This document shows positions 5,108 through 55,051 of a stretch of 64,000 nt of DNA, piece after piece. The stretch is from an uncultured Verrucomicrobia subdivision 3 bacterium. Its GTDB lineage: Bacteria > Verrucomicrobiota > Verrucomicrobiia > Limisphaerales > UBA11358. Both the position numbers and the translations under genes were made by a program. Positions within the stretch are counted from its first letter, which is position 1; every line of letters begins with the position of its first letter. The notes under the pieces are model-generated. The model searched no databases. It was given only the letters and a program-made list of their open reading frames with translations, and had not been told where the DNA came from. The stretch lies in the NCBI GenBank assembly GCA_903917705.1, contig CAIXBQ010000141.1, positions 26,861 to 90,860 on the forward strand, read 5' to 3'.

Positions 5108-8194
<3,087 letters not shown>

Positions 8195-15930: not shown

Positions 15931-16014
15931 ACCGCCCGGGCGATACTTTTTTAATGACACGACGACCCGCGGCGTCAAGAATACCGGTTTGAATCCGCCG
16001 CCGAATCACAACGC

Positions 16015-16728
16015 ATGACCGTCACCCTTTTCATCCCGTGCTTCGTGGACGCGCTGTATCCGCGCGCGGGCATCAGCATGGTGGAAATCCTCGAACGCCT
16101 GGGCCACACCGTGATCTGCCCGGAGGCAATCGCCTGCTGCGGCCAGCCGCCCTTCAATTCCGGCTACTGGGACGAGGCCCGCACCATCGCCCGGCCGGTG
16201 CTGGAATCATTGAAGGCGGCGGAAGCGGTGGTCATCGGCTCCGGCTCCTGCGGCGCGATGGTGAAGAAGTTTTACCCCGAGCTGTTCGCCAACACGGATC
16301 ACGCCGAACTGGCGAAGCAGGTGTCGGCCCGGACGTGGGAGTTCTCGGATTTCCTGGTCAACAAGCTCGGAGCGACCGACCTCGGGGCGACGTTTCCGCA
16401 CAAGGTCACGTTCCACGACGGCTGCCACGGCCTGCGCGAGCTCGGCATCCAGAAACAACCGCGCGCGCTGCTGGCCAGCGTCCGCGGCCTGGAACTGGTC
16501 GAGATGGGCGAGGTGTCGTGCTGCGGCTTCGGGGGGACGTTCGCCGCGAAGTTTCCGATGATCTCCACCGCGATGGGCGAGGTGAAATGCGCGGCCGCGG
16601 CCGAGACGAACGCGGAATACATCGTCTCCAGCGATTCGAGCTGCCTGATGCACATCCAAGGACTGCTGTCGCGCCAGGGCAAGCCGACCAAAACCATCAG
16701 CCTGGCCGAGGTGCTGAACCACAAATAA
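16015..16728 (+). CDS. lutA: L-lactate dehydrogenase complex, Fe-S oxidoreductase subunit LutA/LldE (CCG domains)
   Basis: MTVTLFIPCFVDALYP...CCGQPPFNSGY...CCGFGGTF. Typical LutA/YkgE protein. Confidence 0.9.
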   Translation: MTVTLFIPCFVDALYPRAGISMVEILERLGHTVICPEAIACCGQPPFNSGYWDEARTIARPVLESLKAAEAVVIGSGSCGAMVKKFYPELFANTDHAELAKQVSARTWEFSDFLVNKLGATDLGATFPHKVTFHDGCHGLRELGIQKQPRALLASVRGLELVEMGEVSCCGFGGTFAAKFPMISTAMGEVKCAAAAETNAEYIVSSDSSCLMHIQGLLSRQGKPTKTISLAEVLNHK

Positions 16729-16775
16729 TTTTTGCCACAGATGGACACAGATGGAACACAGAAGGGCATCAGCGC

Positions 16776-18176
16776 ATGAGCTTTGTCTCCCAATTCAAGG
16801 CGCAGGCCGGCGAGAAGACGCGCGACCTACGGCACCGACAGTTCATCCGCACGGCGCTGCGAGGCTATGAAACCGCCCGCGACAAGCGCAAAGGCGCGTT
16901 CCAAAGCTGGGAGTCGGCGCGGCAAGCCGCCGCCGAGACAAAATGGGAGGCCATCAACCACCTCGACGAACACCTGGTCGCGCTGACCCGCCAACTCGAG
17001 GCGCGCGGGACGAAAGTCCACTGGGCCAGCACCGGCGCGCAAGCCCGCGAAATCATCGCGCAGATCCTCCGCGACAAGCAGGCACGCTGCATCATCAAGT
17101 CCAAGGCGATGACATCGGAGGAGATCCATTTGAACGACGCGCTGGAAAAGGAAGGCTTCACCGTAGTCGAGTCGGACCTGGGCGAATTCATCGTGCAACT
17201 CCGGCACGAGACGCCGTATCACATCGTCTTCCCCTCGATGCACCTGACGCGCGGCGAAATCCGCGAGCTATTCCAGCGCGAACTCGGCGACGCGCCGTCG
17301 GACACCCCCGAAGATCTGACGATGGTGGCGCGCCGCGTGATGCGGCAGAAATACATCACCGCCGACGTGGGGTTCACCGGGGCGAACTTCGCCATCGCCG
17401 AGACCGGCATGATTTCCATCACGGAAAACGAAGGCAACTCGCGCCTCACCGCCGCGCTGCCCAAGACGATGGTCACGCTCATCGGCATCGAGAAGGTGCT
17501 GCCGCGGTTCGCCGACCTGGCGCTGTTCCTGCCGATGCTGGCCACCGCCGGAGCCGGCCAGCCGATGACGTGCTACAACACGATGTACTCCGGCCCGCGC
17601 CAGCCCGGCGAAGCGGACGGCCCGGAAGAATGGCACGTGGTGCTGCTGGACAACCGCCGCACGGAACTCCTGGCCGACACCGAGCAGCGCGACGCCCTGC
17701 ACTGCATCCGCTGCGGCGCGTGCCTGAACGTCTGCCCGATTTTCCGCAATGTCGGCGGCCACACCTACGGCACCACCTACAGCGGGCCGGTCGGCGCGGT
17801 GATCACGCCGCACCTGCGCGGGCTGCAGGAGTGGAAGCATCTTTCCAACGCCTCGTCGCTCTGCGGCGTCTGCACCGAGGCCTGCCCGGTGAAAATTGAC
17901 CTGCACCATCACCTGCTGCAAAACCGGCGGAATGCCTCCGCCAGCCAACCCGCCTTCCTGGAAAAGCTGGCGTACAAGATTTTCGGCATCGTGGCGAACG
18001 AGCCGGCGTTCTGGTCGCTGGCGAAGAAACTTGGCTGGCTCACGCAGCCACTGCACGACGCGGTGAAAGGCTCGGCGCTCGACCCGGCCAGGGCATGGAC
18101 CAAGACGCGCGACCTGCCGCCAATGCCCCGGGAAACATTCAAAGACTGGTGGCGGAAAAGGATGAAGGCAGAATGA
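16776..18176 (+). CDS. lutB: L-lactate dehydrogenase complex, iron-sulfur subunit LutB/LldF
   Basis: Starts at the in-frame ATG MSFVSQFKAQAGEK. Has a LUD domain plus CIRCGACLNVCP and CGVCTEACP ferredoxin motifs. The first 246 codons of listed ORF 16038..18176 are an out-of-frame overlap of lutA. Confidence 0.9.
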   Translation: MSFVSQFKAQAGEKTRDLRHRQFIRTALRGYETARDKRKGAFQSWESARQAAAETKWEAINHLDEHLVALTRQLEARGTKVHWASTGAQAREIIAQILRDKQARCIIKSKAMTSEEIHLNDALEKEGFTVVESDLGEFIVQLRHETPYHIVFPSMHLTRGEIRELFQRELGDAPSDTPEDLTMVARRVMRQKYITADVGFTGANFAIAETGMISITENEGNSRLTAALPKTMVTLIGIEKVLPRFADLALFLPMLATAGAGQPMTCYNTMYSGPRQPGEADGPEEWHVVLLDNRRTELLADTEQRDALHCIRCGACLNVCPIFRNVGGHTYGTTYSGPVGAVITPHLRGLQEWKHLSNASSLCGVCTEACPVKIDLHHHLLQNRRNASASQPAFLEKLAYKIFGIVANEPAFWSLAKKLGWLTQPLHDAVKGSALDPARAWTKTRDLPPMPRETFKDWWRKRMKAE

Positions 18177-18880
18177 AGAAGGCAGAAACAATTTTGAACG
18201 AGCGTGACAATATCCTTGGCCGCATCCGCGAGGCATTGAAAGCGAGCGCCCCCCTGCCCGGCTCGCATGGCGGCAGCCATGAACACACACCAGCCGGACC
18301 GCCCGCCAGCCACGCGCGCGAATGGCTACCAGCCGTCGGTACGAGCGCGGCGGAACAATTTGAATTGTTCGCGAGAAATGCCGCCGACTTGAAGGCGGAT
18401 TTTCAACTGCTGGCCAGCCGCGAGGAATTGAAAGCCGCGCTCATCAAGCTGCGCGACGCCGGGAAATGGCAGCGGATCGCCAGCCACGGCGGCGAACTGA
18501 CCGACTTCGCCGGCAAGTCCCTCGGCCTGCCAGTGACGCTCACCGACCGCGGCTATGACGTGCAGGAAATGGAGCAGTGCGACGCGGGCATCACCGAATG
18601 CGACGCGCTGATCGCCCAGACTGGCAGCGTGGCGGTGACCAGCCGCAGCGCGGGCGGCCGCGCACTGTCGGTGCTGCCGCCGCATCACGTCGTCATCGCG
18701 CGGCGCGACCAACTCGTCGCGGACCTGCCTGCCGCGTTCGCGCGGCTGCAGGAGAAATACGCGCCGGATTTTCCTAGCATGATCTCCTTCATCACCGGCC
18801 CCAGCCGCACCGGCGACATTGAGCGCATCCTGGTTTTGGGGGCGCACGGGCCGAAGAAGCTGACGATTTTGTGTATATAA
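18173..18880 (+). CDS. lutC: Lactate utilization protein LutC/LldG (LUD domain)
   Basis: The start MKKAETILNERDNILGRIREAL overlaps the lutB stop (ATGA). C-terminal motif GPSRTGDIE..LVLGAHGP. Confidence 0.85.
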   Translation: MKKAETILNERDNILGRIREALKASAPLPGSHGGSHEHTPAGPPASHAREWLPAVGTSAAEQFELFARNAADLKADFQLLASREELKAALIKLRDAGKWQRIASHGGELTDFAGKSLGLPVTLTDRGYDVQEMEQCDAGITECDALIAQTGSVAVTSRSAGGRALSVLPPHHVVIARRDQLVADLPAAFARLQEKYAPDFPSMISFITGPSRTGDIERILVLGAHGPKKLTILCI

Positions 18881-19024: not shown

Positions 19025-20773
19025 TCAGTAGGCAAGGTTCTTGTGGTCCTTGCCGTGGCAACTCAAGGTGCAATTGCCATGGTTCATGCCGGTGGAGGAA
19101 TAGTTGATCACGCCATGGAGGGGCTGGACATAGGCAGTGTTAAAATTGATCAAGTGAGGCTGGGTGGCGGCGTGGGAATCATGGCAGGTTGTGCAGGCGG
19201 CCTTATAGTCTTCGATATGCGTCCGATGATTCGGCCAGCTCGTGGCAAGGGAACTGTCCACCACGGAACTGCTGTGGCATTTATAGCACAGAGCGAAATT
19301 CGCGGGATTGTAGGGGCTGCCATCAGTCAGGAGCAACATCCGCTCAAGCAACGGCGCAAAGGCCGACCCGTGCGGGCCATTCGCACCGGCACCGCCGGTG
19401 GCCGACCCCTGATCATTGTTATGACAATCGCCGCAGCCGACCAGGCTGGAAGTCGTCAAGGGCGGGATGAGGCTGGGCACGCCGGCATTTTTGCCGACGC
19501 TTTCCAGCGGATGGAACGAGGTGCTGCCGGGATTAAATTCCAGGCGGGTGTTGGTCTGCACAAACTGGCGCGGGACAAGGGCGGGGCCGCGACCGGCACT
19601 GTCGCCGTGGCAGCGAAAGCATAATTCATATTCGTGAATAACGGCGGGGAGCCGGCCACCACCCGCGCTGACGCCGGCGACGCCGGCCAAGGCGCCGGCG
19701 ACCTGAGTTTTCGCACCGGGAGCGCCACTGGAGGCATGCGGATTATGGCAATCCACGCATGTCACGTGACGAACCGGCGGGTTCACCAAATCCTCGCGCG
19801 CATTATGCGCGTCCGGCTCCATCGAAACAGGATGGGCGCTAAGCTTCTTCAAATCCACCGAAACATTCTTCCCAGGACCATCACCGGCATGACAGTCAAT
19901 ACAGTTTTTTTCCGGGGTGGAAAACCGCATCAACTCGAGTTTGGCGCCGGCGGCATGGGGCACATGGCAACTGGCGCAGGCGGTGTGCGCCACCGAGGCG
20001 GATACGGAAGCCTTGATAAGGTTGCCGTTTTTTGCCGGCCCAACTTGAACCGCGAGAGCCACCGGCAGCAGTTTACTGGAAACCGCATGGGCAGAGCCCG
20101 ACCAGTCGGGCAAGGTGTGACAAGTCAAGCAGAGCGCCGAACCAGTATTATCCCTGACCAGAAAACTTCCGTATTGATTGTTATGCGGGTCATGGCAGGT
20201 GGTGCATTGGAGCTGGCCGTTGCGATCCAAGGCGACTTCAGGCGGGAGGGTTCCGGGATCAACCAAATCGCCGGCGGCGGTGGCAAGGGGCGCATCATAA
20301 GTGAAGGAAACCGGATGATCCGAAGAAAGGTCAGTGCCCAAATTGTCCAGGCCGGCCGGCATGGCGGCGGTGTTCATGGAAATGCCACCCGCGCGGCTCC
20401 CAACCAGCCCCAGGGCAACCGTGCCATCGTGGCAGCTCAAGCAAAGGCGGGACGAACCGTTCGGCTGGCCGATGGTCACGTTCAAAGCCGTCAGCGTAGC
20501 GCTGCTATAGGGCGTGTAAGCCGCCGCGGACATCTGGTGATTCCAAAGCGGGCCGTCGGTGGCAGAGGCCCCGTGCGGCGCATGGCAAAACACACACACG
20601 TCCGACTCCGTGGTCGCGTGAACCGGGCCGGGACTGCTGACCGAAAGATTGTGGCGTGAATAAATGATGCTATTGGGATTGTCGGCAAAGGCGGCAAGAG
20701 CCAGGAAGACCAGACCGACCACCACCGCGGAAAGACGCTGGCGGCCCGAAACAAATTGCGGCGCGCGATTCAT
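19025..20773 (-). CDS. Secreted dodecahaem c-type cytochrome (11 CXXCH plus 1 CX3CH), built from three tetrahaem modules
   Basis: Signal peptide LVFLALAAFA/DN. Motifs CVFCH, CLSCH, CTTCH, CLTCH, CASCH, CIDCH, CVDCH, CFRCH, CGDCH, CYKCH, CTTCH and CTLSCH. The start overlaps the stop of the upstream NHL gene (20770..20773). Confidence 0.85.
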   Translation of the reverse strand: MNRAPQFVSGRQRLSAVVVGLVFLALAAFADNPNSIIYSRHNLSVSSPGPVHATTESDVCVFCHAPHGASATDGPLWNHQMSAAAYTPYSSATLTALNVTIGQPNGSSRLCLSCHDGTVALGLVGSRAGGISMNTAAMPAGLDNLGTDLSSDHPVSFTYDAPLATAAGDLVDPGTLPPEVALDRNGQLQCTTCHDPHNNQYGSFLVRDNTGSALCLTCHTLPDWSGSAHAVSSKLLPVALAVQVGPAKNGNLIKASVSASVAHTACASCHVPHAAGAKLELMRFSTPEKNCIDCHAGDGPGKNVSVDLKKLSAHPVSMEPDAHNAREDLVNPPVRHVTCVDCHNPHASSGAPGAKTQVAGALAGVAGVSAGGGRLPAVIHEYELCFRCHGDSAGRGPALVPRQFVQTNTRLEFNPGSTSFHPLESVGKNAGVPSLIPPLTTSSLVGCGDCHNNDQGSATGGAGANGPHGSAFAPLLERMLLLTDGSPYNPANFALCYKCHSSSVVDSSLATSWPNHRTHIEDYKAACTTCHDSHAATQPHLINFNTAYVQPLHGVINYSSTGMNHGNCTLSCHGKDHKNLAY

Positions 20774-21834
20774 GGTTTGCTGAGATAGCGAAACATCTGG
20801 AGCCGATGATTGTAGGCATCAGCCACGAAAATTTCATTTTTGGAATTGATTACGATGGCATTGGGGAGGCAGAACTGGCCGGCGGCGGATCCCGCCCCGC
20901 CCCAGTCCAGCAACAACTGGCCAGCCTCGTCAAAAATCTGCACATTATTAAAAACACCGTCCACGACATAAACGTGCCCGTCGCGGTCCACGGCCACGCC
21001 CTTGGGCCGGCTGAAACACCCCGGTCCGTCGCCCGCGCTGCCGAAGGCGCGCAGGAAGCGACCATCCGGGTCAAAGACCTGAATGCGGCAATTCAAAGAA
21101 TCCGTGACATAGATGCGGCGATGGCCGTCCACGCTGACGTGCGTGGGGAAATTGAATTCGCCCGGCCCAAGCCCCCGGCGGCCAAACCGGGAAATGAATT
21201 CGCCTTGCAGCCCGCAGACAACAATCTGGTGGCGCTGCGAGTCCGCGATCAGCAAATGGTCGCCGGCCAGCGCCAGACCGGCGGGCCGCTCGAGACCGTT
21301 GGTGATGGCAAACCGAATTTTCCCCTGCTCGTCAAAGGCCAGCACCTTGCCCAAGCCGGAGTCAGCGACAAAAAATGTCGGCCCGCGCCGGACGGCGGAC
21401 ACCGGCGACAAGAAGGGGGTGCCGCCAACCGATGACCAGCGCAGCCATTTTTTACGGGCGAAGTCCAGATAACAAACCGTGGCGGAACCGGTGTCGGCGA
21501 CCAGAAGATTGCCCGCCTCGTCCAGGGAAAGTCCGAAAGGCCGATTCAATTTCTGCCGGCCATTGTTGACCCCGGTGATCCAGTTGGCGAACCGGAGCAA
21601 CGCCGCCGGGCGGACCCCGATATCCGGCGGCCCGGAAATATCCCGCACATAAACCACGCGCGGTTCGGCGGGCGGCGGCGGCCAGGCGGGGGCCGGTTTA
21701 GACCCGGCGAGCGCAGACAGCGGGAAGAGCAGACCGAGCCACGCCGCAAAAACAAAAATGCTCCGGAACCGCAAACCACCGGGGCACGGTGGCGACGGCG
21801 ACGCGGAGGGAGATGATTTCAGCAAACGTGACAT
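20770..21834 (-). CDS. Secreted NHL-repeat six-bladed beta-propeller protein
   Basis: Repeated NHL units (G.F..P.G(V/I)AVD..G..YV(A/V)D..N.R(I/L)Q(V/M)F). N-terminal hydrophobic signal FVFAAWLGLLFPLSALAG. Confidence 0.8.
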   Translation of the reverse strand: MSRLLKSSPSASPSPPCPGGLRFRSIFVFAAWLGLLFPLSALAGSKPAPAWPPPPAEPRVVYVRDISGPPDIGVRPAALLRFANWITGVNNGRQKLNRPFGLSLDEAGNLLVADTGSATVCYLDFARKKWLRWSSVGGTPFLSPVSAVRRGPTFFVADSGLGKVLAFDEQGKIRFAITNGLERPAGLALAGDHLLIADSQRHQIVVCGLQGEFISRFGRRGLGPGEFNFPTHVSVDGHRRIYVTDSLNCRIQVFDPDGRFLRAFGSAGDGPGCFSRPKGVAVDRDGHVYVVDGVFNNVQIFDEAGQLLLDWGGAGSAAGQFCLPNAIVINSKNEIFVADAYNHRLQMFRYLSKP

Positions 21835-21835
21835 A

Positions 21836-23857
21836 TCAGAAAGATCGCCTCAGATAGGTGAAGAATCGATGTTTAATGCGTTCTTCCGACCAACCGCCGG
21901 CCGCGGTTGACTGGGAGTTAAATTCATAGCCGGCGCGCAGGCTCAATTTGCCGCGCGTCCAGCCCAGACCGGTACGCGCCATGCCCTGAACCAGCTGGTT
22001 GCCAGCCACCTGCTGCACCAGGCCGCCGCCCTCGACATACCACTTGATGGACATCGGCAGCAAGGTATTGTAGCGGGCCATGAACTGGTATTGCGACTGG
22101 TCCGGACTGCCGGGGTAAGTGTAAAACGATTGGCTGAAATCCAAACTCAACGAGGACACGCCGGTCAGGTCGAACTCAAAATTCTGGAATAAACGCAGCG
22201 ACTGATACCGGGTAAAATTGGAATCGTAGCTTTCAAGTTCCGCGCCGGTGCGGAACCACTTGCGATGATAATCCACACCGCCGACCAGATCGGTGAGCGT
22301 CTGGGTGAGCACCACCGGCGGCGCATTGTTATCGAGCCAGTTCACCCGACCGTAAACACCGAATCGATTGAACAAATCCAGCCGGAACTGGCCATTAGCA
22401 CTGAAGGTGTCGTAGGAGCTGCTCCCCACCGGATCGCTCTGGTAGGTAACCGTGACCGAAAGATTGTCATTCGTTTGCAACAGGCCCTGAAGATGACTGC
22501 CGGGCGGAACCACCAGTTTGATTTCCGTCAATTCACCGGAATGAACGATCGTGTAGTCCGCCGGATTGGCGAGCGTATCAGCTCCGGCGCTGACGACAAT
22601 GGTGGAATCAACGACCCGGGGACGGTTTAAATAGACCGGGTGGTAGCCGAGGCTGGTGGACAGATAAAGCTGATGCGGCTCCGCGAACGTCGTAAGCATG
22701 GCGCCGGAGGAATCCTGATCCTGATGGTCGACCACGAGTCCGGTTCCCACCGCCAGCCGGCCCCACGATTGCAAGCGCTTGGTATAATTTTCAGACAGCC
22801 CGAGCCCATATTGATCAAAAGTGGAACCGCCCCCGGCCGCAGTGTCCTCCTGATGCGTGCCATGGCCTTCGAGACTGGACGTGAGACTTTCGTAAAGCTG
22901 ATGACGGACACCGGCGGTGCCCTGCACCCGCGAAGAAACAATGGGATTCAACTCACTGCGGTTGAAATTCATCATCAGGTAGCTGTCCAGATTGGGCCGG
23001 TGGTTGACGAGCAGGTTTTCACTCGCGTTCAAGGTGTCAATCTGCTGCCCGGAATAATCGGACTGGCTGTAACTCAAGCCGGTGCCGGCATTGATCTGCT
23101 TCCGATGGCCGAACGTTTCTGAATCGGAAAGGCCCGCCGACCAGTTGCTGGTATCCAGGCGGCTGCCATAATTCAAAACATTTTCCAACTCGCTGGCATG
23201 CAAACTCAAAGTCGTCTGGCCGGATTTCCGCTGATGGATGCCAAGGAAATTAAAATATGTTTCGGTGATCTGCGAGGAATCCGTCAGGCCGGAAGCCGTC
23301 TCGTCGCGATACCCCAAATCCGCGTTCAGGCTGAACTCGCCCGCATTGCAATTAATGCGTCCGCCGTAACGATTCGCGTCCACCGTGTAGGTATTGAAGG
23401 TGCCGTAGTCGCGGAAGGTGTGGTCTTGCGCGGCGAAGACGGAGACATTGTAAGGCTTGGCCGAAAGCAGATTGAACTGGGCCAGATAACGGAGCAATTC
23501 CGCGCTCTCATTGCGGGTCTGCCCAGAGCCCGGACCACCGGACGTCATGTTGTCCCAGCCCCACCCCAAGTCGCCGCTCAAATCAAACGCCAGGAGGTTG
23601 GGATGATAAATCGAACCGGTGGTATGGAGTCCCACCAACGGCGTAACGGAAGTATGATCGTAGGTGCTGCTGCCACCGCTGACCCGCGTCTGTTCCGTGG
23701 AACCTTCCGCCTCGACGCCCACGCTCACCTCGGGCAGGCCGTTCAACTTGAACCACTCGGGGTCTTCCGCCCGAACCGCGGGGGCAATACCCGCCGCAAA
23801 ACCGAGGACGGACAGGCCGGCGAACCAGCGATAGCGATGGAAACACCCCAAATTCAT
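21836..23857 (-). CDS. Large outer-membrane beta-barrel protein (porin-like, family unknown)
   Basis: 673 aa. Signal peptide ...GIAPAVRA/EDP. Long runs of alternating polar/hydrophobic Y/G/S/T/N-rich strands. C-terminal ...FFTYLRRSF ends in an aromatic residue, as in BAM substrates. Its start overlaps the stop of the 15-haem gene. Confidence 0.7.
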   Translation of the reverse strand: MNLGCFHRYRWFAGLSVLGFAAGIAPAVRAEDPEWFKLNGLPEVSVGVEAEGSTEQTRVSGGSSTYDHTSVTPLVGLHTTGSIYHPNLLAFDLSGDLGWGWDNMTSGGPGSGQTRNESAELLRYLAQFNLLSAKPYNVSVFAAQDHTFRDYGTFNTYTVDANRYGGRINCNAGEFSLNADLGYRDETASGLTDSSQITETYFNFLGIHQRKSGQTTLSLHASELENVLNYGSRLDTSNWSAGLSDSETFGHRKQINAGTGLSYSQSDYSGQQIDTLNASENLLVNHRPNLDSYLMMNFNRSELNPIVSSRVQGTAGVRHQLYESLTSSLEGHGTHQEDTAAGGGSTFDQYGLGLSENYTKRLQSWGRLAVGTGLVVDHQDQDSSGAMLTTFAEPHQLYLSTSLGYHPVYLNRPRVVDSTIVVSAGADTLANPADYTIVHSGELTEIKLVVPPGSHLQGLLQTNDNLSVTVTYQSDPVGSSSYDTFSANGQFRLDLFNRFGVYGRVNWLDNNAPPVVLTQTLTDLVGGVDYHRKWFRTGAELESYDSNFTRYQSLRLFQNFEFDLTGVSSLSLDFSQSFYTYPGSPDQSQYQFMARYNTLLPMSIKWYVEGGGLVQQVAGNQLVQGMARTGLGWTRGKLSLRAGYEFNSQSTAAGGWSEERIKHRFFTYLRRSF

Positions 23858-25233: not shown

Positions 25234-26325
25234 TCAAGGTGTGGCCGGCTTTTTTAGAAACCCATAAACGCTGACCTTGTTCGGGCCGAACTGGCTGGTA
25301 ACCAGAATCAAGTAGTCACACTGGCAACCCGGCGCGAGGTATTTCTGAAAATACCCAAGGTGGTCGTAATCCACCTTGATGGACGCCGGCAGCGTCAGTT
25401 GACCGCGCGTGCTGGTGCCCGGCTGGCCGAAATACATAAGCAGCCGGCCCTCCGCATCAAAGATCTGCACCACCTGCGTGGCGGCATCCACCACATAAGC
25501 CCGGCCCTGATGATCCACCGCCACGCCTTTGGGGCGGGCAAAGCTTCCCGGCGCCAAGCCCTGCCGCCCGAGCGTTCGCAGATATTTTCCGTCTAGGTCA
25601 TAGACCTGGACCACAAACCCGCCGACATCGGACACCAGCAACCGGCCGTTCTGGTCCAGCGCCAGGTTGGCGGGGGAATAAAGGGTTCCCGCGTTGGTCG
25701 CGGCGCTATTGGCGGCCGGGATGGTGAACAAGAGTTGCTGATCCGCCTTGCTATAAACCCGGACGACATGATTGAGCATGTCGCCCACATAAATCCGGTT
25801 GGTCGAAACCGCCACGTCCGCCGGCTTCATCTCGTCTTTTTTCCCGATGGCACTTAAAAAATTGCCGTCGTTGTCATAGATCACCACCTGATTCCGGCCG
25901 GTATCGGCCACATACCGCGTGCCGTCGGCATCAATGGTGAGATTAATCGGCGTCCGGAGTTTCCCCTCGCCCGGCGGAGCGAAGTAAGCCGCCCGGTGTT
26001 TGTTCAGGTCAAACACCTGGATCATGCTGCCCACGGTGTCGCAAACATAGATTTTGCCGCCATGCAACGCCAAACCGTAAGGCTTGACGAGACTGCCCAC
26101 CGGCTGTTGCCCGGTGATAAAATCGCCAAAAGTCCTGGTGCGCCCCAGCTCAGCATCAGAGGAGAACGAAGTCAGAAATTGAATCCGCGGCTCATCCGGA
26201 GACGGCGGGAAAAAAGTGTAACTCGTCCTGGCGGCGGGCTTGGTGGCGGCGCAGCCAGCCAGCAACCACAGCAAAAGGCAGCTGCCGGACATCCAAACAA
26301 GCCCGCGTTTAATCATGAAGATCAT
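25234..26325 (-). CDS. NHL-repeat beta-propeller lipoprotein
   Basis: Start taken at MIFMIKRGLVWMSGSCLLLWLLAGC (lipobox LLAGC). NHL units such as GRNQVVIYDNDG, LNHVVRVYS and ATQVVQIFDAEG. Confidence 0.8.
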   Translation of the reverse strand: MIFMIKRGLVWMSGSCLLLWLLAGCAATKPAARTSYTFFPPSPDEPRIQFLTSFSSDAELGRTRTFGDFITGQQPVGSLVKPYGLALHGGKIYVCDTVGSMIQVFDLNKHRAAYFAPPGEGKLRTPINLTIDADGTRYVADTGRNQVVIYDNDGNFLSAIGKKDEMKPADVAVSTNRIYVGDMLNHVVRVYSKADQQLLFTIPAANSAATNAGTLYSPANLALDQNGRLLVSDVGGFVVQVYDLDGKYLRTLGRQGLAPGSFARPKGVAVDHQGRAYVVDAATQVVQIFDAEGRLLMYFGQPGTSTRGQLTLPASIKVDYDHLGYFQKYLAPGCQCDYLILVTSQFGPNKVSVYGFLKKPATP

Positions 26326-26616
26326 GGGTAAATTCGTATTATAAATCAGCTCGAAGGCCGCGTTCGGCGCTCCAAGAATGGCCAACAAAGTTACACGCCC
26401 AAGCCAGAAAAACCAAGCGTCTTTTCCCGCCGAGTTATCAAGCCTGGCCCGGTTTTCCGCACATTCAGGTGCCGGCAATCAAACCGGCGCAAAAAATAGT
26501 CCGTTAAAACCGCCCCGAGACCCGGTCCCGTTTGCCAGGCCCGATAAAAAGCGGGCTTTGGTCAACCGATTTGACCAAAGCCCGCGCGATTCCAATCAAG
26601 CAACGAGACCTAACGA

Positions 26617-29004
26617 TTACTGAACCAAGATAAACTTGGTGCGGGTCAACGGCGAACCGTCAACCGTGCAGGTCACCGAGTAAAGACCCGGAGTGTTGTA
26701 GATATATGTCGGGTTGGCGCCAGTGGTGGATCCGCCATCCCCGAAAGTCCAATTATACACACCGCCGCTGCCGTAGCTATTGCTGAACGACACCGACAAC
26801 GGAGCGGAACCCGAGACCACGCTGGCCGAGAACGCGGCCGGATAGTTGCTGGTGACAAACTGGTTCATCACCCGGCTTTCCGCATCCGCGAGCAGCGATT
26901 TCACATAGGTCGGATTATGGACACCATAGCTCTGGTCTTCATAAATCCAATAGAGGCTAAAACGCGCCGTGCGAATGTCCTGCGGAACCGTTGACAACTG
27001 GAGGTTGTCATTGGTGCCGGACGGGACAAGGCCGAACGCGGGATTGTAGGCCTTGGGCGGGCCGACGCTGAACACCTTGCCGGCACCATTGGTAGATTTA
27101 GCGCCGAAATAAGCGAGCGGGCTGGGGTACTCCCAGGCGCACGTCCCGTAATTCGTCCGGAGGATAGCCGGAGCCACGGTGCTGCCCCATTGCTTCAACA
27201 GGGAGACCACGCGGTCCATGCTATTGGACACGGCGGCCTTGGAGTTGAAGGTCTTGGCCACCAACTGCGGCGCGGTCAAAGCGGAATGGCACGAGGCCAG
27301 ACAGCCGGCGTTATCCGAAACGAACGAGTGACCGGTGACATTGGTGCCGGCATTGACCGCGTAGCCCGGCACATGGCAGTCGGCACACTGGTTGGGTGCC
27401 AGGGTGTGAGGATCCGTGAGCACGTTTGCGGGACCGCCGCGCGCAGCCAGGTCATCATTCAACTGGCCGATGACCACGTTGTACTGCACGGGATAGTGCG
27501 GCGCATAATCGCCGGCGCTATTGCTGCTGTAATAAACCGTGCCACCATTGGTGTAGGCAATGAGCGGATAATAGATCCCCACGCCAACCACCGGATTGGT
27601 TGAGGTCGAAACAACATAGGATTGGTAGGTCACAGGATTACCCTGGATATTGGTGAACACCTGGCCGTATATGTTGGTATAAACCACGCTGTTCGTGGTA
27701 TACGCACTCACCAGATTGGTCGTTGTGATGGCCACCAGGTTGGTCACATAACCATAGGTCGAACCATCCCAGCGCGGACCGGCTCCGCCGATACCGCCGC
27801 CGCCACTATGGCACTGGCCACAGACCTGAACCTTGGGATTATAATACTGATCAAACACATTGTTCAGGGTGAGAGTATTAGTGGTAAACGTCCCGTTGTA
27901 ATTTGTGATGACCGCCGTGGTTGTCAGCAAAAGCGGCACCACATGGCTATAGTTGGTGGAGAAGGTAGGATAACGCAACTGGGCGACATAATTGGACGAA
28001 TGCGGGTCATGGCAGGTCGCACAGGCGGCCGCCCCGACCGAACCCATAGCCCCCGCGAATGAACCGGGGAACAAGGTCAGCGGATGCGGGCTGCCCGCCT
28101 TGTTGTCATAATATTCCTTGACCATGACCATGCGCTGGTCGGCCAAATGGCAAACCTGACAAGCTCCACTGTGGCTACCGACGCTATGGCCCACGCTGCC
28201 TTTGATAATGCCCATGGGCAGATTGGTAACACTGCTGGCAATAATATTGGTGTACTCCTGGAAGGTGGGATGCAGACTGCCCTGATGGCAACTGCCGCAG
28301 ATGTTCGGATCCAAGCTGACCACCGGAAGGATCAGGGCGTGGTCGCTGTTCTTGTGCCAGCCAGCCGGGCCGTGGCAGTTTTCGCAGCCTACGTTCTCCA
28401 GGTTGGGGGTGGTCGCGGGATCCACAAAACCGGTCTGCTGGCCATAGCCAACGGTCAGGCACGCCAGCGAGAACCGGTTGGAAACAGCCGGATTGCTATA
28501 AACCCCCGAATGCGTGGTCTTTTTATATGGGGTGTATTTGTTACCGTGACAACCGGCACACTGGTCAGAGCCGGCATAGCTGTTGGCCTGGGCCAACCGG
28601 AAGCTATAACTGTTGGTCGGATCGGGCTTGGGTGCGGTGAAGGTCCCGGCAAAACTCGACGAGATCACGGTGCCAAGGGTGAGCCAAGGTCCTGTGACGA
28701 TATTCGTGGTAGCCTGGATGCTATACCACCCGTTCACGCCAAACCATTTCAAGGTGAAATTGGTCGGGGTGTTGGTCGGGGTAAATGTGACCGTGGGGTT
28801 CTGATAGGCCGCAGCGCACACGCCGCCACCGGAGTTAAACGGGGCCAGGGTGCCCGCCACGTAATTGGAGGCCAGCCCGTATTGATTCGTCTGCGGCGGC
28901 AGCGACAGCGACTGTGCCGTGGCCGCAAACACACCGCCCAGCAGCAAACCCGTCGCCAAGACGGATTGTGCGCGGCGCATGAGATTATGGTTCATTAGTT
29001 TCAT
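26617..29004 (-). CDS. Secreted multihaem c-type cytochrome (7 CXXCH plus 1 CX3CH) with a C-terminal PKD domain
   Basis: Start at MKLMNHNLMRRAQSVLATGLLLGGVFAATAQS. Motifs CAGCH, CENCHGP, CGSCH, CQVCH, CATCHDPH, CGQCH, CADCH and CLASCH. C-terminal PKD signature YNWTFGDGGSTTGANPTYIYNTPGLYSVTCTV. Confidence 0.8.
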   Translation of the reverse strand: MKLMNHNLMRRAQSVLATGLLLGGVFAATAQSLSLPPQTNQYGLASNYVAGTLAPFNSGGGVCAAAYQNPTVTFTPTNTPTNFTLKWFGVNGWYSIQATTNIVTGPWLTLGTVISSSFAGTFTAPKPDPTNSYSFRLAQANSYAGSDQCAGCHGNKYTPYKKTTHSGVYSNPAVSNRFSLACLTVGYGQQTGFVDPATTPNLENVGCENCHGPAGWHKNSDHALILPVVSLDPNICGSCHQGSLHPTFQEYTNIIASSVTNLPMGIIKGSVGHSVGSHSGACQVCHLADQRMVMVKEYYDNKAGSPHPLTLFPGSFAGAMGSVGAAACATCHDPHSSNYVAQLRYPTFSTNYSHVVPLLLTTTAVITNYNGTFTTNTLTLNNVFDQYYNPKVQVCGQCHSGGGGIGGAGPRWDGSTYGYVTNLVAITTTNLVSAYTTNSVVYTNIYGQVFTNIQGNPVTYQSYVVSTSTNPVVGVGIYYPLIAYTNGGTVYYSSNSAGDYAPHYPVQYNVVIGQLNDDLAARGGPANVLTDPHTLAPNQCADCHVPGYAVNAGTNVTGHSFVSDNAGCLASCHSALTAPQLVAKTFNSKAAVSNSMDRVVSLLKQWGSTVAPAILRTNYGTCAWEYPSPLAYFGAKSTNGAGKVFSVGPPKAYNPAFGLVPSGTNDNLQLSTVPQDIRTARFSLYWIYEDQSYGVHNPTYVKSLLADAESRVMNQFVTSNYPAAFSASVVSGSAPLSVSFSNSYGSGGVYNWTFGDGGSTTGANPTYIYNTPGLYSVTCTVDGSPLTRTKFILVQ

Positions 29005-29121
29005 ATTATTTTTTGTTGGTTCATGCGCCGTCACGAGGACCGCCCGGCCAGCCGCCGCCCCAACGGGCGGTCGACAGGCACGGGCAATCGATTCATAAGC
29101 GGGCACAGCGGACGTAGCTGA

Positions 29122-29853
29122 TTACTTGTTATGGCAACTGCGGCAGAGCAAGCTGCCGACGCCACCGGCGGTGCCGTTAATTTTGACGAGGTGCGGATTG
29201 TTAACAATGTTATACGGCGAACCTTCCTGGTTGTGCACGTCGTGGCAGGAATTGCACTCCAGATTGCCCTGCTGATTGAGCAAGAAACCCCTGATGCTCA
29301 TGTCGTTGCCGGGCGTGAAACCGGGCGAATTGGCGTCCGGGGCCAACACGGGGTTCGCGGAGTCATAGATCCACTTGTCCTGGCCCGGGCCCGTTCCAAC
29401 GATGGACTGGTAGTTGAAGGAGATCGGATGCGAGTGGGTCAGATTTTTGCTGTTTTCGGAGATGGCGGCACCGTTGGTGATATATTCCGAACTCGCGACA
29501 CTGCCATAGGCATTGACCGCGATGGAGCCGTCATGGCAGCTCAAGCACGCCAGGGAACTGCCGGTCGGAGCCGACGCCGGAGTATATTTGATGTTGGCTC
29601 CCGGAGAAGCGCCATTGGCATACATCTGCCATCCCGAGGCGGAAATTGCCGTATGACCCCAGAGCGGGCCGGTGTTGGGATCGGCATGGTGGGGCGTGTG
29701 ACACACAGCACAGACCGTGGCCGGATTGGCCGGGTCGTTATTCCACGCACGGGAGTGGAAATCATGCGGACTGCCAAGGATGCCCGCCCGGGCGGTCAAG
29801 GTCAGCAGGGAGCCTGCGACCACGGTCAGAGTGAGGAGGTGTGTGTTTTTCAT
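29122..29853 (-). CDS. Small secreted tetrahaem c-type cytochrome
   Basis: 243 aa. Signal peptide LTLTARAG. Motifs CAVCHTPHH, CLSCHDG, CNSCHDVH and CRSCHNK. Collinear with the first module of the dodecahaem protein. Confidence 0.85.
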   Translation of the reverse strand: MKNTHLLTLTVVAGSLLTLTARAGILGSPHDFHSRAWNNDPANPATVCAVCHTPHHADPNTGPLWGHTAISASGWQMYANGASPGANIKYTPASAPTGSSLACLSCHDGSIAVNAYGSVASSEYITNGAAISENSKNLTHSHPISFNYQSIVGTGPGQDKWIYDSANPVLAPDANSPGFTPGNDMSIRGFLLNQQGNLECNSCHDVHNQEGSPYNIVNNPHLVKINGTAGGVGSLLCRSCHNK

Positions 29854-30062: not shown

Positions 30063-31148
30063 TCAAGCACGACAAACCGAGGCCCCATCAATCGTCCAGC
30101 CGGGCGCGGTCTCAACCGCGACCGGGGCACGCCGGGCATAGGGCGAATTAAATCGCTCCATCAATTCCATCACGTGTTCGGCAATGATCTGCCGGCACAC
30201 CGCGAGCTCCTGCTCGCGATTTTTGGTGTTTTCGCGAACGACGGCTTCCAGATCATCGATATCATAAAGGTAGACGTCCGGAAGTTCCGCCACCGCCGGG
30301 TCGATGTCGCGCGGCACCGCGATGTCCACCAGCACCAGCGGCCGGTGCCGGCGCGCGGGCAAAATCTTCGCCACATCCTCGCGTTTCAAGACAAGGTCGG
30401 GGCTGCCGGTCGAGCTGACGAGAATGTCCGCCTCGGTCATCGCCGCCGCCGAATCCTCGATCCGCACGGCGCGGCCGCCAAATTCCGCCGCCAGCCTCTC
30501 CGCGCGCTCGAACGAGCGGTTGGAAACGAGGACGGTTTTGGCTCCGCGCTTGGCCAGATGTTTCACGCAAGCCTCACCCATCTTGCCCGCGCCCAAAATC
30601 ATCACGGTCTTCTTGCTCAAATCCCGGTCGAACACTTTTTCCGCAAGTTCCACCGCCACACTGCCCACCGAGGTCGCACCGCGGCCGATGCCGGTGTTCG
30701 TGCGGACGGCCTTCACCACCGACAAGGCGGTCTGGAACAGCCGGTTCATCTTCTTACCCACGAGGCCGGCGTCCTTCGCCGCCTGATACGCGGTCTTGAC
30801 CTGGCCGGTGATCTCCGTTTCGCCGATCACCAGCGAGTCCAAACCGCTGGCCACCGCAAAGAGATGTTCCGCCGCCGCGGCGCCTTCCTTGACGTAGAGA
30901 TGCGGGGTGAAATCGAAATCGCTGCCGGTAAGCTCCTGAAACAGCCGCTGAACGCGGCCCTGAATCCACGGGGCCACGCCATAGATCTCGACGCGGTTGC
31001 AGGTGGAGAGCAGGACGACCTCGGCGAGATTGCCGCGCAGCTTGAGGCGGCAGCCGCAGCATTGCAAGCGCGAGCGGTGGACCGCGAGTTTCTCGCGCAC
31101 CTCCACCGGCGTGGTCTTGTAGCTCAAGCCTGCAACAAAGATATTCAT
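30063..31148 (-). CDS. hemA: Glutamyl-tRNA reductase
   Basis: MNIFVAGLSYKTTPVEVREKLA...LSTCNRVEIY...ILGAGKMGE. Canonical HemA. Confidence 0.9.
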   Translation of the reverse strand: MNIFVAGLSYKTTPVEVREKLAVHRSRLQCCGCRLKLRGNLAEVVLLSTCNRVEIYGVAPWIQGRVQRLFQELTGSDFDFTPHLYVKEGAAAAEHLFAVASGLDSLVIGETEITGQVKTAYQAAKDAGLVGKKMNRLFQTALSVVKAVRTNTGIGRGATSVGSVAVELAEKVFDRDLSKKTVMILGAGKMGEACVKHLAKRGAKTVLVSNRSFERAERLAAEFGGRAVRIEDSAAAMTEADILVSSTGSPDLVLKREDVAKILPARRHRPLVLVDIAVPRDIDPAVAELPDVYLYDIDDLEAVVRENTKNREQELAVCRQIIAEHVMELMERFNSPYARRAPVAVETAPGWTIDGASVCRA

Positions 31149-31279: not shown

Positions 31280-33004
31280 TTAGATTTCCTTACCGCTCTC
31301 GAGGGTGCCCGGCGGGTCAGCGCGGAGCTGTTCCGCCGCGGGTTCCAGCGGATGTTCATGCAACTGAAACTCCTCGGAAATGCGCCCGTCCAGGCAGGCG
31401 GTATTAAGCGGGTAAACCTCCGGATCAAAGATGACGTGATAGAAATGCCAGACGATGATGGCCAGGCAGGCCAAAACCGCCTCGTAATAGTGGATGGTCG
31501 TCGCCACGGTCACCACCCACCGCGGCAGCCATTGCGTCACGTCAATCTTCAGCCAGATGGCCAAGCCGGTCGCGCCCATGATGATCGTGCCCCAGACCAC
31601 CGCCCAGTACTCCATCTTCTCGGCATAACCGAAACGGCCGATTTTTGGTTTCGATTTCGTGAAGCCACCCAGGTAACAAACGGCGTGCCACACGTCAGCC
31701 GCATCTTTTTTTACCGGGAACAGGTCGGCCACCAGTTTCCGTCCGTCACGGGTGGCGAGGAGATAAATCACGTGATACAAGCCGACCCCGAGCAGGATGA
31801 TGCCGGCGATGCGGTGCGTCCAGCGGCGGAACGGCTCGCTCGAACACATCACTTTCGCCAGCCAGGAATCGGGGAATTTCAGGGCGAAGCCCGTGATGGC
31901 CAGCACGATGAAGCTGGAGGCCAGCAGAAAATGCTGCCAGCGCTGCGACGCCGTCATCCGCACCACGGGTCGCTCCGTCATGCGCAGCCGCGCGGCCGTC
32001 TTCTTGAGGAACAAAATTCCGTTGTGGGCCAGCATGCCGCCGATGGTGCCGAAAATGAGAAGCATATAGATGTTCCGCACCCAGCGGTTCAACCGGCTGC
32101 CAAAATCAACCCCGCCCGCCTGTCCGTCCGGCGCGACGTGGATTTTGCCCAAGGAGAACTCGGTGTTCGCGCCCGGATGACATTTGCCGCACGTGGTCAC
32201 CAAGTTTGCCTTGCTGATGGTCGAGTTGGTGTCCGACGACGGCAGAATCTTATGGTAGCTGTGGCAACTGGCGCAATTCGCCGCGACGGTGGAACCATAT
32301 TGCGCTGCGAGGCCGTGGTAACTTTCAAAAAAGGTTTTCACCCGGTCCGCCGGCAGATTGTATTTGGTGTTCAACCGCTCGGACGAATGGCAGCGGCTGC
32401 ACACATCCTCGGAAATGGTCATGGTTGAACTCGTCTTGAGCGAACGGATTTTATGGTCGTCATGGCAGCCCGTGCAGGTCGGCGCGTCCTGCGAGCCGGC
32501 GGCCACCGCCTTGCCGTGGACGCTCGCCTGCCATTCGCGCGCCTCCTTGTCATGGCACGCGCCGCAGGTTTCCGCCTGACGCGCAAAATAGATCGGCGAG
32601 GTGGGCGAACGATCGCTAATGATCTCATGGGTATCATGGCAGTCGCGGCACGTGGCCGCGTCATCATGGCCGGATTTCAAGGCCAGGCCGTGAACGCTCG
32701 AATTGTAGCTTTCCGTCTGCCGCGCGTGGCACAAGCCGCAATTGACCGGGGCCAACGGCTTGCCGTCGTCGGGATGCTTGGTCGTGAGGTCCGCATGGCA
32801 ACTGATGCAGGAGTTGGTCTTGTGGGCGGACAATTTCAATTTGGCCGCATCCACGAACAATGAAATGGCCTTGCCGGCGGAATTGGTCTTGAACAGCGTG
32901 TTATCGCCATGGCAGTCAAGGCAGTCGCTATTTTTCAAGCCGGCCAGGGCCGGCAGCGCCGCGAGCATGAACAAGGTGAACAAAATGGGGAGACAGCGTT
33001 TCAT
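31280..33004 (-). CDS. Inner-membrane nonahaem c-type cytochrome fused to an FdnI/HydC-like dihaem cytochrome b (CbcL-like quinol oxidoreductase)
   Basis: Signal peptide plus 9 CXXCH motifs (CLDCH, CISCH, CGLCH, CRDCH, CGACH, CTGCH, CSRCH, CASCH, CGKCH). These are followed by about 5 TM helices carrying conserved His residues (RWQHFLLASSF, THRIAGIILLGVGLYHVIY, TTIHYYEAV...VWHFYHVIF). Confidence 0.8.
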   Translation of the reverse strand: MKRCLPILFTLFMLAALPALAGLKNSDCLDCHGDNTLFKTNSAGKAISLFVDAAKLKLSAHKTNSCISCHADLTTKHPDDGKPLAPVNCGLCHARQTESYNSSVHGLALKSGHDDAATCRDCHDTHEIISDRSPTSPIYFARQAETCGACHDKEAREWQASVHGKAVAAGSQDAPTCTGCHDDHKIRSLKTSSTMTISEDVCSRCHSSERLNTKYNLPADRVKTFFESYHGLAAQYGSTVAANCASCHSYHKILPSSDTNSTISKANLVTTCGKCHPGANTEFSLGKIHVAPDGQAGGVDFGSRLNRWVRNIYMLLIFGTIGGMLAHNGILFLKKTAARLRMTERPVVRMTASQRWQHFLLASSFIVLAITGFALKFPDSWLAKVMCSSEPFRRWTHRIAGIILLGVGLYHVIYLLATRDGRKLVADLFPVKKDAADVWHAVCYLGGFTKSKPKIGRFGYAEKMEYWAVVWGTIIMGATGLAIWLKIDVTQWLPRWVVTVATTIHYYEAVLACLAIIVWHFYHVIFDPEVYPLNTACLDGRISEEFQLHEHPLEPAAEQLRADPPGTLESGKEI

Positions 33005-44723: not shown

Positions 44724-44828
44724 CAGGAATTGCATAAACTAGCAAGGGATGAATTCTTACCTTGCCCGAAGCAATTGCTTCTTCAGGAATTGCATAACGA
44801 TTTACAGGAAGTGCTCTATCCTTTATTC
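44724..44828. promoter_or_regulatory. Divergent control region with CAGGAA half-sites and a conserved element of about 45 bp
   Basis: CAGGAATTGCATAA at 44724 and 44784. CAGGAA at 44805, 21 bp from 44784. The stretch 44783..44828 is about 90 percent identical to 58226..58270. Confidence 0.5.
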
Positions 44829-45021
44829 CTGCCTTGGCAGTAAAATCCCGCGACAGATAAACCAAAACCCGTCTTATGAAATGAAAATCAAGCGGATAAG
44901 CATACTCTTCCTGGTCGACGACATGGCGTCCGGCCTGTTTCAACTCGCCGCCGCTGCGCTCGGAACCACGGCAAGCCCCGCTGAGAAGCATTCCATAAGT
45001 GGAACAACAGGAAGCGCAGAA

Positions 45022-47979: not shown

Positions 47980-47989
47980 AGGCTCCATT

Positions 47990-50137: not shown

Positions 50138-50254
50138 GGAAACTCCAGGTCAGCCTGTGAATGAAAACCATTGTTATTTTACAGTCGCCGCATTCTTGGC
50201 AGAGAGCTGCTGAATGCTTTGGTAATAGCAGCCTATAACTGAAAGAATTCTGTC

Positions 50255-51382: not shown

Positions 51383-51451
51383 TTTCGTGTGGAAGAGGAC
51401 AACGGCGAGACGAAGTTTGAAGGTTTTTAGCAAGCAGAAAGAAATACTCAA

Positions 51452-53458: not shown

Positions 53459-53512
53459 CATCGGCATTTAATGACATTTTTCTTAACCATTAAAATAACC
53501 GAAAAAACATTC

Positions 53513-55006: not shown

Positions 55007-55051
55007 GACTGGCTAACGTTCCCAGAAATGGCCCGACCAGCAAACTTGAAT

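Follow-up and report, generated by a model that had tools for sequence, protein, structure and literature searches.

The 64,000-nucleotide stretch analysed here, called the window below, comes from an uncultured Verrucomicrobia subdivision 3 bacterium of the Limisphaerales (assembly GCA_903917705.1, contig CAIXBQ010000141.1, positions 26,861 to 90,860 of the forward strand). Its minus strand carries a gene for a predicted outer-membrane (OM) beta-barrel protein, and the cluster around this gene holds all five multihaem cytochrome genes of the window (Table 1). Judged from the sequences of the cluster, the barrel is a Verrucomicrobiota member of a type of electron-export system that has been described and is experimentally uncharacterised.

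The barrel gene is packed tightly between its neighbours. Its ATG shares four nucleotides (ATGA) with the TGA of the 451-residue cytochrome gene (...CCAGATGAATTTG), a single nucleotide separates its stop codon from the start of the 354-residue NHL gene (TTC TGA T ATG), and this NHL gene overlaps, again by ATGA, the gene of the 582-residue cytochrome that follows. The Sec-type signal peptide of the barrel protein ends AVRA/ED and is helical in the structural models, while the C-terminus reads YLRRSF, with an ending of the form [KR]R.F throughout the family. Apart from C5, which lies in the signal peptide, the protein has a single cysteine, C170, and hence no CXXC motif. The first-pass annotation, made from the letters of the window, had described a protein of 673 residues with a cleavable signal peptide, rich in Tyr, Gly, Ser, Thr and Asn, ending in YLRRSF and lacking an N-terminal CXXC, with its start overlapping a 15-haem lipoprotein gene and its stop one nucleotide before an NHL gene, in the company of a 12-haem cytochrome. 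All of this was borne out by the open reading frame (ORF), by both junctions and by the neighbouring genes, which encode exactly 15 CxxCH motifs with a lipobox, a Pfam NHL protein, and a cytochrome with 11 CxxCH and one CX3CH. Leucine is nevertheless the commonest residue of the barrel protein (L 10.8, S 10.5, G 10.4, T 7.9, N 5.8 and Y 5.1%).

Table 1. The barrel gene, its internal features and the genes of its cluster, with positions in the window.
Feature	Position	Strand	Basis
Barrel gene, 673-aa predicted OM beta-barrel	21836..23857	minus	ATG-started ORF, AlphaFold2, Foldseek, family search
Signal peptide codons, residues 1-30, predicted cleavage after AVRA	23768..23857	minus	read from sequence; low-pLDDT N-terminal helix in AlphaFold2
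Signature motif GS[IV]YHP[ND]L, residues 81-88, with invariant H85, conserved rim	23594..23617	minus	family alignment
Signature motif H[QR]L[YF][ED]SL.S, residues 319-327, with invariant H319, turn on same rim	22877..22903	minus	family alignment
Beta-rich insert, ~80 residues (400-479), between barrel strands 19 and 20	22421..22660	minus	DSSP of both AlphaFold2 models
C-terminal beta-signal ...HRFFTYLRRSF, last barrel strand	21839..21868	minus	sequence; family-wide [KR]R.F ending
15-haem lipoprotein cytochrome, MtrA/DmsE-like, 451 aa	23854..25209	minus	15 CxxCH, lipobox LLFGC/S, TIGR03508, 6R2Q_A match
NHL beta-propeller, 354 aa, Sec signal, no lipobox	20770..21834	minus	Pfam NHL E 2e-29
Dodecahaem cytochrome, 582 aa, 11 CxxCH + 1 CX3CH	19025..20773	minus	motif count; OmcE match
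NHL beta-propeller lipoprotein, 414-aa ORF, lipobox LLAGC	25234..26478, true start probably 26316-26325	minus	Pfam NHL
Accessory cytochrome, 829 aa, 7 CxxCH + 1 CX3CH, C-terminal PKD domain	26617..29106	minus	motifs, Pfam
Tetrahaem cytochrome, 243 aa, OmcE homologue, candidate filament subunit	29122..29853	minus	4 CxxCH; PDB matches
hemA (glutamyl-tRNA reductase)	30063..31148	minus	sequence; Pfam GlutR_N on equivalents in loci L026, L092, L093
9-haem c-type domain fused to membrane cytochrome b, CbcL-like	31280..33004	minus	9 CxxCH; Pfam Ni_hydr_CYTB 1.9e-14

AlphaFold2 (AF2) was run twice on the barrel protein, with an alignment of 51 close homologues and with one of 60 homologues spanning the whole family. 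The two models reached a pLDDT of 84.9 and a pTM of 0.60, and a pLDDT of 89.9 and a pTM of 0.73, respectively, and their topology is identical: after the signal helix and a short strand (residues 34-38) come 29 long strands, with an insert at residues 400-479. According to DSSP, the turns between the long strands are mostly of 2-5 residues. In these models the 29 long strands and the short N-terminal strand are most simply read as a 30-strand barrel. The C-terminal strand of known substrates of the beta-barrel assembly machinery ends in the periplasm; if the same is true here, strand parity would give a barrel of 30 strands with the insert in an external loop. For n = 30, the formula R = b/(2 sin(pi/n) cos alpha), with b = 4.4 Å and alpha = 37-45 degrees, yields an estimated backbone diameter of ~53-60 Å for the predicted barrel.

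Hydrophobicity alternates along the predicted strands with a score of 1.81, versus 1.18 ± 0.16 for within-strand shuffles, the highest of 2000 shuffles reaching 1.70. A Foldseek search of the PDB returned large OM barrels only (LptD, TonB-dependent receptors, ushers, SlpA and MtrB), with E-values of ~1e-8 to 1e-6 and TM-scores of 0.2-0.4. The highest TM-score, 0.41, was that of MtrB (6r2q_B), for which values of 0.33-0.41 were obtained. Because the matches are confined to large OM barrels and the strands alternate in this way, we regard the predicted fold class as settled, with no close relative among the solved structures.

At the level of sequence the protein is much more isolated. It matched no Pfam family at E <= 0.1 and no NCBIfam model, 59 relatives went equally unmatched, and PF11854 (MtrB_PioB) found no match in 60 members of its family even at E <= 1. 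Searches of PDB sequences with the barrel and with its family profiles returned noise only, and 6R2Q chain B, MtrB itself, was not matched at E <= 10. The generic porin families gave weak matches in two of the 60 relatives (Porin_4 at 7e-4 and BBP2 at 1e-3). Several distant homologues of Omnitrophota type (P0281, P0284, P0294, P0296, P0299 and others) carry the precomputed Pfam accession PF27730.1, which is precomputed neither on the window's barrel nor on its close relatives; this newer entry is absent from the Pfam copy used in our searches. No match to the barrel or to the 12-haem cytochrome was obtained by tblastn against plasmids.

A word-indexed search found at least 175 close homologues, all of them labelled 'hypothetical', and those with a named source come from Verrucomicrobiota metagenome-assembled genomes (MAGs). 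They align from residue 1 and their initial methionine is invariant. A profile search run exhaustively over 1.84 billion representative proteins extended the family to 1319 clusters (50% identity) at E <= 1e-3, 220 of them at E <= 1e-30. Full-length members are nearly all 620-730 residues long, typically ~660-700, at identities to the query that fall to ~22%. The named distant members belong to Omnitrophota and to one Chlamydiota-labelled MAG, and Kiritimatiellia are also among the named relatives. By these searches the family is large and goes without annotation in the Pfam and NCBIfam versions used. One JGI entry of 887 residues (P0300) is a gene call that fuses the barrel with the downstream NHL protein. 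It was not used as evidence and may be a frameshift or assembly artefact, since the two genes normally lie 1 nt apart.

Conservation within the family is markedly one-sided. When the strongly conserved positions are placed on the predicted barrel, 41 lie on one rim and 13 on the other, a difference never reached in 5000 permutations. Two histidines, H85 and H319, are invariant in the 60 diverse members, each within a signature motif on the conserved rim. The insert holds 8 of the top 45 conserved positions and is well kept in distant homologues, with the consensus SIVVTD..G..Y....DY.V...G..TEI.R..GG.I..G..VLVDY. This family-wide anatomy of the barrel is previously undescribed.

The product of the gene coupled to the barrel start is MtrA/DmsE-like. 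It scores 185 bits against TIGR03508 (the DmsE family), for which the cutoff is 192.2, and it matches 6R2Q chain A (MtrA) with an E-value of 1.9e-15 and with paired CxxCH motifs in register. In the PDB file that we used, this chain is labelled 'Cystathionine beta-synthase'; its sequence is that of the decahaem cytochrome. Features kept across loci are, at the N-terminus, the lipobox and a C-x(11)-KWL..FFDGVP motif, then a linker rich in proline, and at the C-terminus a highly conserved stretch of ~100 residues. The number of CxxCH motifs is always odd, being 5, 9, 11, 13, 15, 17, 21 or 33 depending on the locus (33 in locus L022). Its sequence suggests a wire of haems that is made up of two-haem repeats and adjustable in length. 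In locus L092 (GCA_942493075.1, OW818681.1, a closed 6.5-Mb genome) the gene for an 11-haem version at 5790-6880 has been missed by the public annotation, which places two small ORFs on the opposite strand; the plus-strand ORF is clean and has the lipobox, FFDGVP and 11 CxxCH.

Two further proteins of the cluster are related to the subunits of OmcE filaments. Residues 17-219 of the dodecahaem cytochrome match 7TFS_A (5e-26) and 9YUQ_N (8e-22), and the pattern of 11 CxxCH and one CX3CH is invariant in 15 distant loci (L022 to L090). At E <= 1e-10 the family of this cytochrome counts at least 6387 proteins among 8000 candidates scored, and their labels go no further than 'cytochrome c3 family' or 'predicted CXXCH cytochrome'. 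The tetrahaem protein matches the same two structures (7TFS_A at 3.8e-10 and 9YUQ_N at 9e-10), with its CxxCH and His motifs aligned. Between this gene and the upstream propeller gene lies that of the 829-residue cytochrome, which has a Thr/Asn/Tyr-rich middle, is confined to the close relatives of Limisphaerales type, and diverges far more than its neighbours do (31-66% identity). As for the two propellers of the window, the 414-residue ORF begins with a lipobox and the 354-residue protein with a cysteine-free Sec-type signal.

The CbcL-like protein resembles Geobacter CbcL and is probably an inner-membrane quinol oxidase that feeds the pathway. Its gene recurs in loci L052, L066, L070, L071 and L092, the last with two tandem copies. 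Placed between the CbcL-like and OmcE-like genes is hemA, which encodes the first step of haem synthesis and recurs there in distant lineages.

The neighbourhood of the barrel was surveyed in 93 loci: 21 species-level loci from the genome scan, 65 metagenome loci selected with a barrel alignment based on the H[QR]L[YF][ED]SL.S motif, and 7 reached through individual proteins. The 21 genome loci were all found in MAGs of Verrucomicrobia subdivision 3 or Limisphaerales that derive from palsa, bog and lakes, and in every one of them the genes run NHL, lipoprotein multihaem cytochrome, barrel, NHL, 12-haem cytochrome (21/21). The window proteins were then compared by tblastn with 91 loci, and positions were counted where the contig reaches far enough to be testable. 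The MtrA-like lipoprotein cytochrome lies directly upstream of the barrel in 68 of 71 loci, and an NHL gene lies upstream of that cytochrome in 48 of 51. On the other side an NHL gene follows the barrel directly in 64 of 65 loci, and the 11+1-haem cytochrome comes after this NHL gene in 53 of 54. Further upstream of the barrel, the OmcE-like tetrahaem gene is found in 37 of 42 loci, and hemA in 10 of the 12 that have enough flank.

These counts hold for barrels at 22-35% identity and for loci of GC 0.39 to 0.65. Gene order is identical in L022, L024, L026, L092 and L093, and most close loci retain the ATGA overlap between cytochrome and barrel. The exception is L025 (JAUYKL010000048.1, a Chlamydiota-labelled MAG), the only locus of the 93 with enough flank in which the downstream NHL and 12-haem genes are missing; it retains the upstream NHL gene and an 11-haem lipoprotein cytochrome.

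The gene content of the cluster has a close published counterpart. A recent preprint (bioRxiv 10.1101/2025.10.22.684050) defines a 'smallest omcE gene cluster' that consists of the OmcE tetrahaem cytochrome, two multihaem cytochromes, two propellers and a large barrel. In the same work the barrel is said to be 'putatively functioning as a secretion or anchor', a parallel is drawn with chaperone-usher pili, and omcE clusters are reported in Geobacter sulfurreducens, Desulfuromonas soudanensis and Geoalkalibacter. The window module has the same six components, and its tetrahaem protein and the N-terminus of its 12-haem protein are homologous to the filament structures 7TFS (G. sulfurreducens OmcE; PMC12954529) and 9YUQ (the D. 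soudanensis OmcE bundle; bioRxiv 10.1101/2025.10.22.684050). Beyond these components the window cluster has a PKD-bearing octahaem cytochrome and the attached hemA and CbcL-like genes. The phyla also differ. Those of the preprint are Thermodesulfobacteriota, Pseudomonadota, Aquificota, Campylobacterota and Nitrospirota, with Verrucomicrobiota not among them, whereas the window's barrel and those of its relatives that have a named source come from Verrucomicrobiota (Limisphaerales, subdivision 3), Kiritimatiellia, Omnitrophota and a Chlamydiota-labelled MAG. The cluster type itself was thus already described in 2025 as omcE, and a proteobacterial relative probably in 2022 as Uet; what is new here is the phylum range, which takes in Verrucomicrobiota, other lineages of the Planctomycetota, Verrucomicrobiota and Chlamydiota (PVC) group, and Omnitrophota.

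The Uet cluster of 'Ca. Tenderia electrophaga' and Gallionella has been proposed to serve electron uptake (bioRxiv 10.1101/2022.05.06.490989; PMC9900912). Compared by description, five of its proteins have counterparts in the window: a tetrahaem UetA, a UetC predicted to have 28 strands, two NHL proteins (UetH and UetI) and UetJ, an 11-12-haem 'doubled CXXCH' cytochrome. It also includes a prolyl isomerase (UetB), the trihaem c7 proteins UetD, UetE and UetG and a cupredoxin (UetF), and has no MtrA-like lipoprotein cytochrome. Prolyl isomerase, trihaem c7 and cupredoxin domains were not found among the window genes between 19025 and 33004 or their neighbours. On its description, Uet looks like a proteobacterial relative of the present system.

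Likeness to other systems is more partial. In the osc cluster of G. sulfurreducens, by the account of Shen et al. (2025, Cell Chem Biol) given in PMC13194489, a study also cited by the 2025 preprint, channel-like OscEFG, a propeller-like OscD and a prolyl-isomerase chaperone OscH accompany the filament-cytochrome gene. To the extent of that account, osc shares with the window a dedicated machinery beside such a gene, channel-like OM components and a propeller-like protein, and differs in its hexahaem OmcS subunit, its OscH chaperone and its composition and order. In DFE_0448-0451 and DFE_0461-0465 of Desulfovibrio ferrophilus and in Ga0056053_02426-02431 of Geoalkalibacter ferrihydriticus, multihaem cytochromes are combined with one or two NHL propellers, and their products have been proposed to make up OM cytochrome complexes; an OmcE homologue is listed for the Geoalkalibacter locus too, together with an MtoA-like and a quinol-oxidising cytochrome (PMC5815863, PMC9769857, PMC12016550). 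By the descriptions of their authors these clusters lack a porin, whereas the window module is centred on its barrel.

Closest in phylum and in habitat is the system of He et al. (2017, mSphere; PMC5615132), a non-Mtr, non-Omb porin beside multihaem cytochromes in freshwater bog Verrucomicrobia, proposed to transfer electrons to humics; its source, like that of the window, is a humic bog. That porin is given at least 20 strands and an adjacent periplasmic 8-haem cytochrome, and NHL proteins go unmentioned, whereas the window cytochrome has 15 haems and its NHL partners are obligatory. As described, the two are probably different systems. The porin-cytochrome loci of Limisphaera, which have OMR-family porins, 6-11-haem cytochromes and no NHL proteins, were set aside as not being the same system. 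The Occ system of 'Ca. Dechloromonas occultata', in which OccP has 922 residues, is not obviously the same either, a barrel being unmentioned in the part of its description available.

The predicted structures, alignments and gene neighbourhoods described above allow us to consider how the barrel may work. We think it likely that the protein is the OM barrel of an OmcE-type extracellular cytochrome module, in which it would house the haem chain that crosses the membrane and hold the extracellular cytochromes at its conserved rim. The barrel would be exported by Sec and folded into the OM by means of its C-terminal aromatic beta-signal, forming a structure of ~30 strands with very short turns in which the conserved residues, H85 and H319 among them, and the insert all lie on one rim. 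Because of strand parity, this rim would face the outside of the cell. In such an arrangement the barrel may both carry the haem chain across the OM and anchor the extracellular part.

The MtrA-like lipoprotein cytochrome, with its conserved C-terminal pentahaem end, would dock in the lumen of the barrel or thread through it. A protein with one end fixed at the barrel and the rest in unconstrained space would fit both the variable haem number and the conserved C-terminal end. Electrons could then pass from the CbcL-like inner-membrane quinol oxidase to the MtrA-like lipoprotein cytochrome, on to the dodecahaem cytochrome and from there to the OmcE-like tetrahaem subunits in the extracellular space. 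The N-terminal domain of the dodecahaem protein, which resembles OmcE, would sit at the conserved rim; there it may touch a polymer of these tetrahaem subunits and perhaps act as its primer. The two NHL propellers could serve as scaffolds or chaperones, one for each cytochrome.

Several observations weigh against this reading. MtrA is not a lipoprotein, and the lipoprotein cytochromes of Geobacter conduits are those at the surface; the cytochrome coupled to the barrel in the window is a lipoprotein. What can be said of the role of the barrel family comes entirely from sequences and models. The strand count, the closure of the barrel and the width of its lumen derive from DSSP strings and geometry, and the TM-score to every solved barrel stays below 0.5. 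The match to the omcE cluster is one of gene content and of homology among the partner proteins, and only one of the two NHL proteins of the window has a lipobox, whereas the preprint describes two propeller lipoproteins. In G. sulfurreducens, moreover, omcE is reported to be dispensable for Fe(III) oxide reduction and for current production (PMC13194489).

A pure usher-like pore that secretes and assembles OmcE-type subunits and lies outside the electron path, electrons reaching the filament through some other conduit, is in our view an unlikely explanation. It has the secretion-or-anchor proposal and the chaperone-usher analogy of the preprint (bioRxiv 10.1101/2025.10.22.684050) in its favour, as well as the report that channel-like OscEFG, propeller-like OscD and a prolyl isomerase drive the secretion and morphology of OmcS, as Shen et al. 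(2025) are cited in PMC13194489. What is more, the ushers FimD and PapC are among the Foldseek matches of the barrel, and by our geometric estimate a barrel of ~30 strands would be wide enough for a folded tetrahaem domain. However, usher TM-scores (0.23-0.29) are the lowest among the top matches. The gene coupled to the barrel encodes the MtrA-like cytochrome, in mtrA-mtrB order, and not the OmcE-like subunit, and no other barrel or conduit is encoded in a cluster that contains every multihaem gene of the window. The usher-pore and electron-conduit roles are compatible, not mutually exclusive. A bolder combination, to which we would give a rather low chance, is a 'cytochrome usher', a single ~30-strand pore that exports the OmcE-like subunits, carries the haem chain and anchors the filament base. 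Here the OmcE-like domain of the dodecahaem protein would prime polymerisation, and H85/H319 or the insert would supply what is still needed to ligate or dock the first subunit.

The remaining alternatives concern the kind of barrel. The gene arrangement recalls Shewanella MtrCAB (6R2Q), where a giant OM barrel gene directly follows that of an MtrA/DmsE-type multihaem cytochrome; by analogy, the barrel of the window would insulate a haem chain across the membrane. MtrB also has the highest TM-score among the solved structures. That the protein is a divergent member of MtrB/PioB/MtoB, a classical porin-cytochrome sheath of 26 strands whose sequence has diverged too far to be recognised, is very improbable all the same. 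The failure of PF11854 and of the family profiles to make the connection, the prediction of 29-30 strands instead of 26 and the missing N-terminal CXXC essentially exclude membership of the MtrB/PioB family, and the ~80-residue insert and the rim motifs are the barrel's own. The partners differ as well. MtrB follows a periplasmic decahaem cytochrome of MtrA/DmsE type, whereas the MtrA-like cytochrome of the window is a lipoprotein with 15 haems here and a variable number elsewhere, and the obligatory NHL and OmcE-like proteins, which are foreign to Mtr, stand in place of MtrC. We can scarcely credit a general diffusion or nutrient-uptake porin that merely happens to lie beside cytochrome genes. 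A window rich in glycoside hydrolases might need uptake channels, and the Porin_4 and BBP2 matches point weakly the same way. Against this, the neighbourhood is invariant over GC contents of 39 to 65% and barrel identities down to 22%, with the downstream partner genes wanting in a single locus of 93 (L025); the start and stop overlaps argue for a co-translated complex, and the uniform length and conserved rim do not suit such a porin.

The first-pass annotation had proposed an MtrB-sized barrel, perhaps of a new porin family for cytochrome insertion, and had named strand counting on a predicted structure, comparison with MtrB/PioB profiles and a survey of homologues as checks. A giant transmembrane barrel is indeed predicted, with 29 + 1 strands in both AF2 runs, although it is larger than MtrB. 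The family is distinct from MtrB/PioB, for which none of the 60 members gave an HMM match, but this kind of system had already been described with the smallest omcE cluster in 2025. The survey agreed with the annotation, multihaem cytochromes adjoining the barrel essentially always. An MtrB-like sheath on its own is not the published view, the preprint proposing a secretion pore or an anchor for the OmcE filament.

How nanowires cross the OM and are held there is an open question according to bioRxiv 10.1101/2025.10.22.684050, and the barrel family is the obvious candidate. The most useful new facts about it are its size and uniformity and its one-sided conservation, with two invariant histidines and the insert. 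To these can be added the OmcE-like head on the always-adjacent dodecahaem cytochrome and a complete candidate pathway in abundant peat and bog Verrucomicrobia. One conserved rim, H85 and H319, and the conserved insert offer features that can be mutated.

In peat, bog and lake water, where the family extends through Verrucomicrobiota and further PVC and Omnitrophota lineages that are uncultivated, methanogenesis has a competitor in the extracellular transfer of electrons to humics and iron. If abundant polysaccharide degraders carry the full set of quinol oxidase, conduit and OmcE-like wire, the modelling of their anaerobic respiration would change. Were the 'cytochrome usher' to prove true, a main route for electrons to humics and iron would run through OmcE-type nanowires in the Verrucomicrobiota, Kiritimatiellia and Omnitrophota of peatlands.

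Other genes of the window give some metabolic context. A lactate-utilisation set on the plus strand (13069-18880) converges on the end of the cluster and comprises a 953-residue FAD/FeS/CCG protein like D-lactate or glycolate dehydrogenase and two proteins that resemble LutB and LutC (LUD). The set may be an electron-donor module beside the electron-export module. Glycoside hydrolases are dense at 9289-12138 (minus) and 44749-58129 (plus), where a GH106 rhamnosidase, two GH2 enzymes, a GH95 and a GH20 are accompanied by a sulfatase. Such a density is typical of polysaccharide-degrading Verrucomicrobiota. An AraC-type regulator is encoded at 43505-44710 and an IS4/IS5-family DDE transposase at 42579-43361 (minus). 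A class II (B12-dependent) ribonucleotide reductase at 5108-8194 (minus) is consistent with anaerobic capability.

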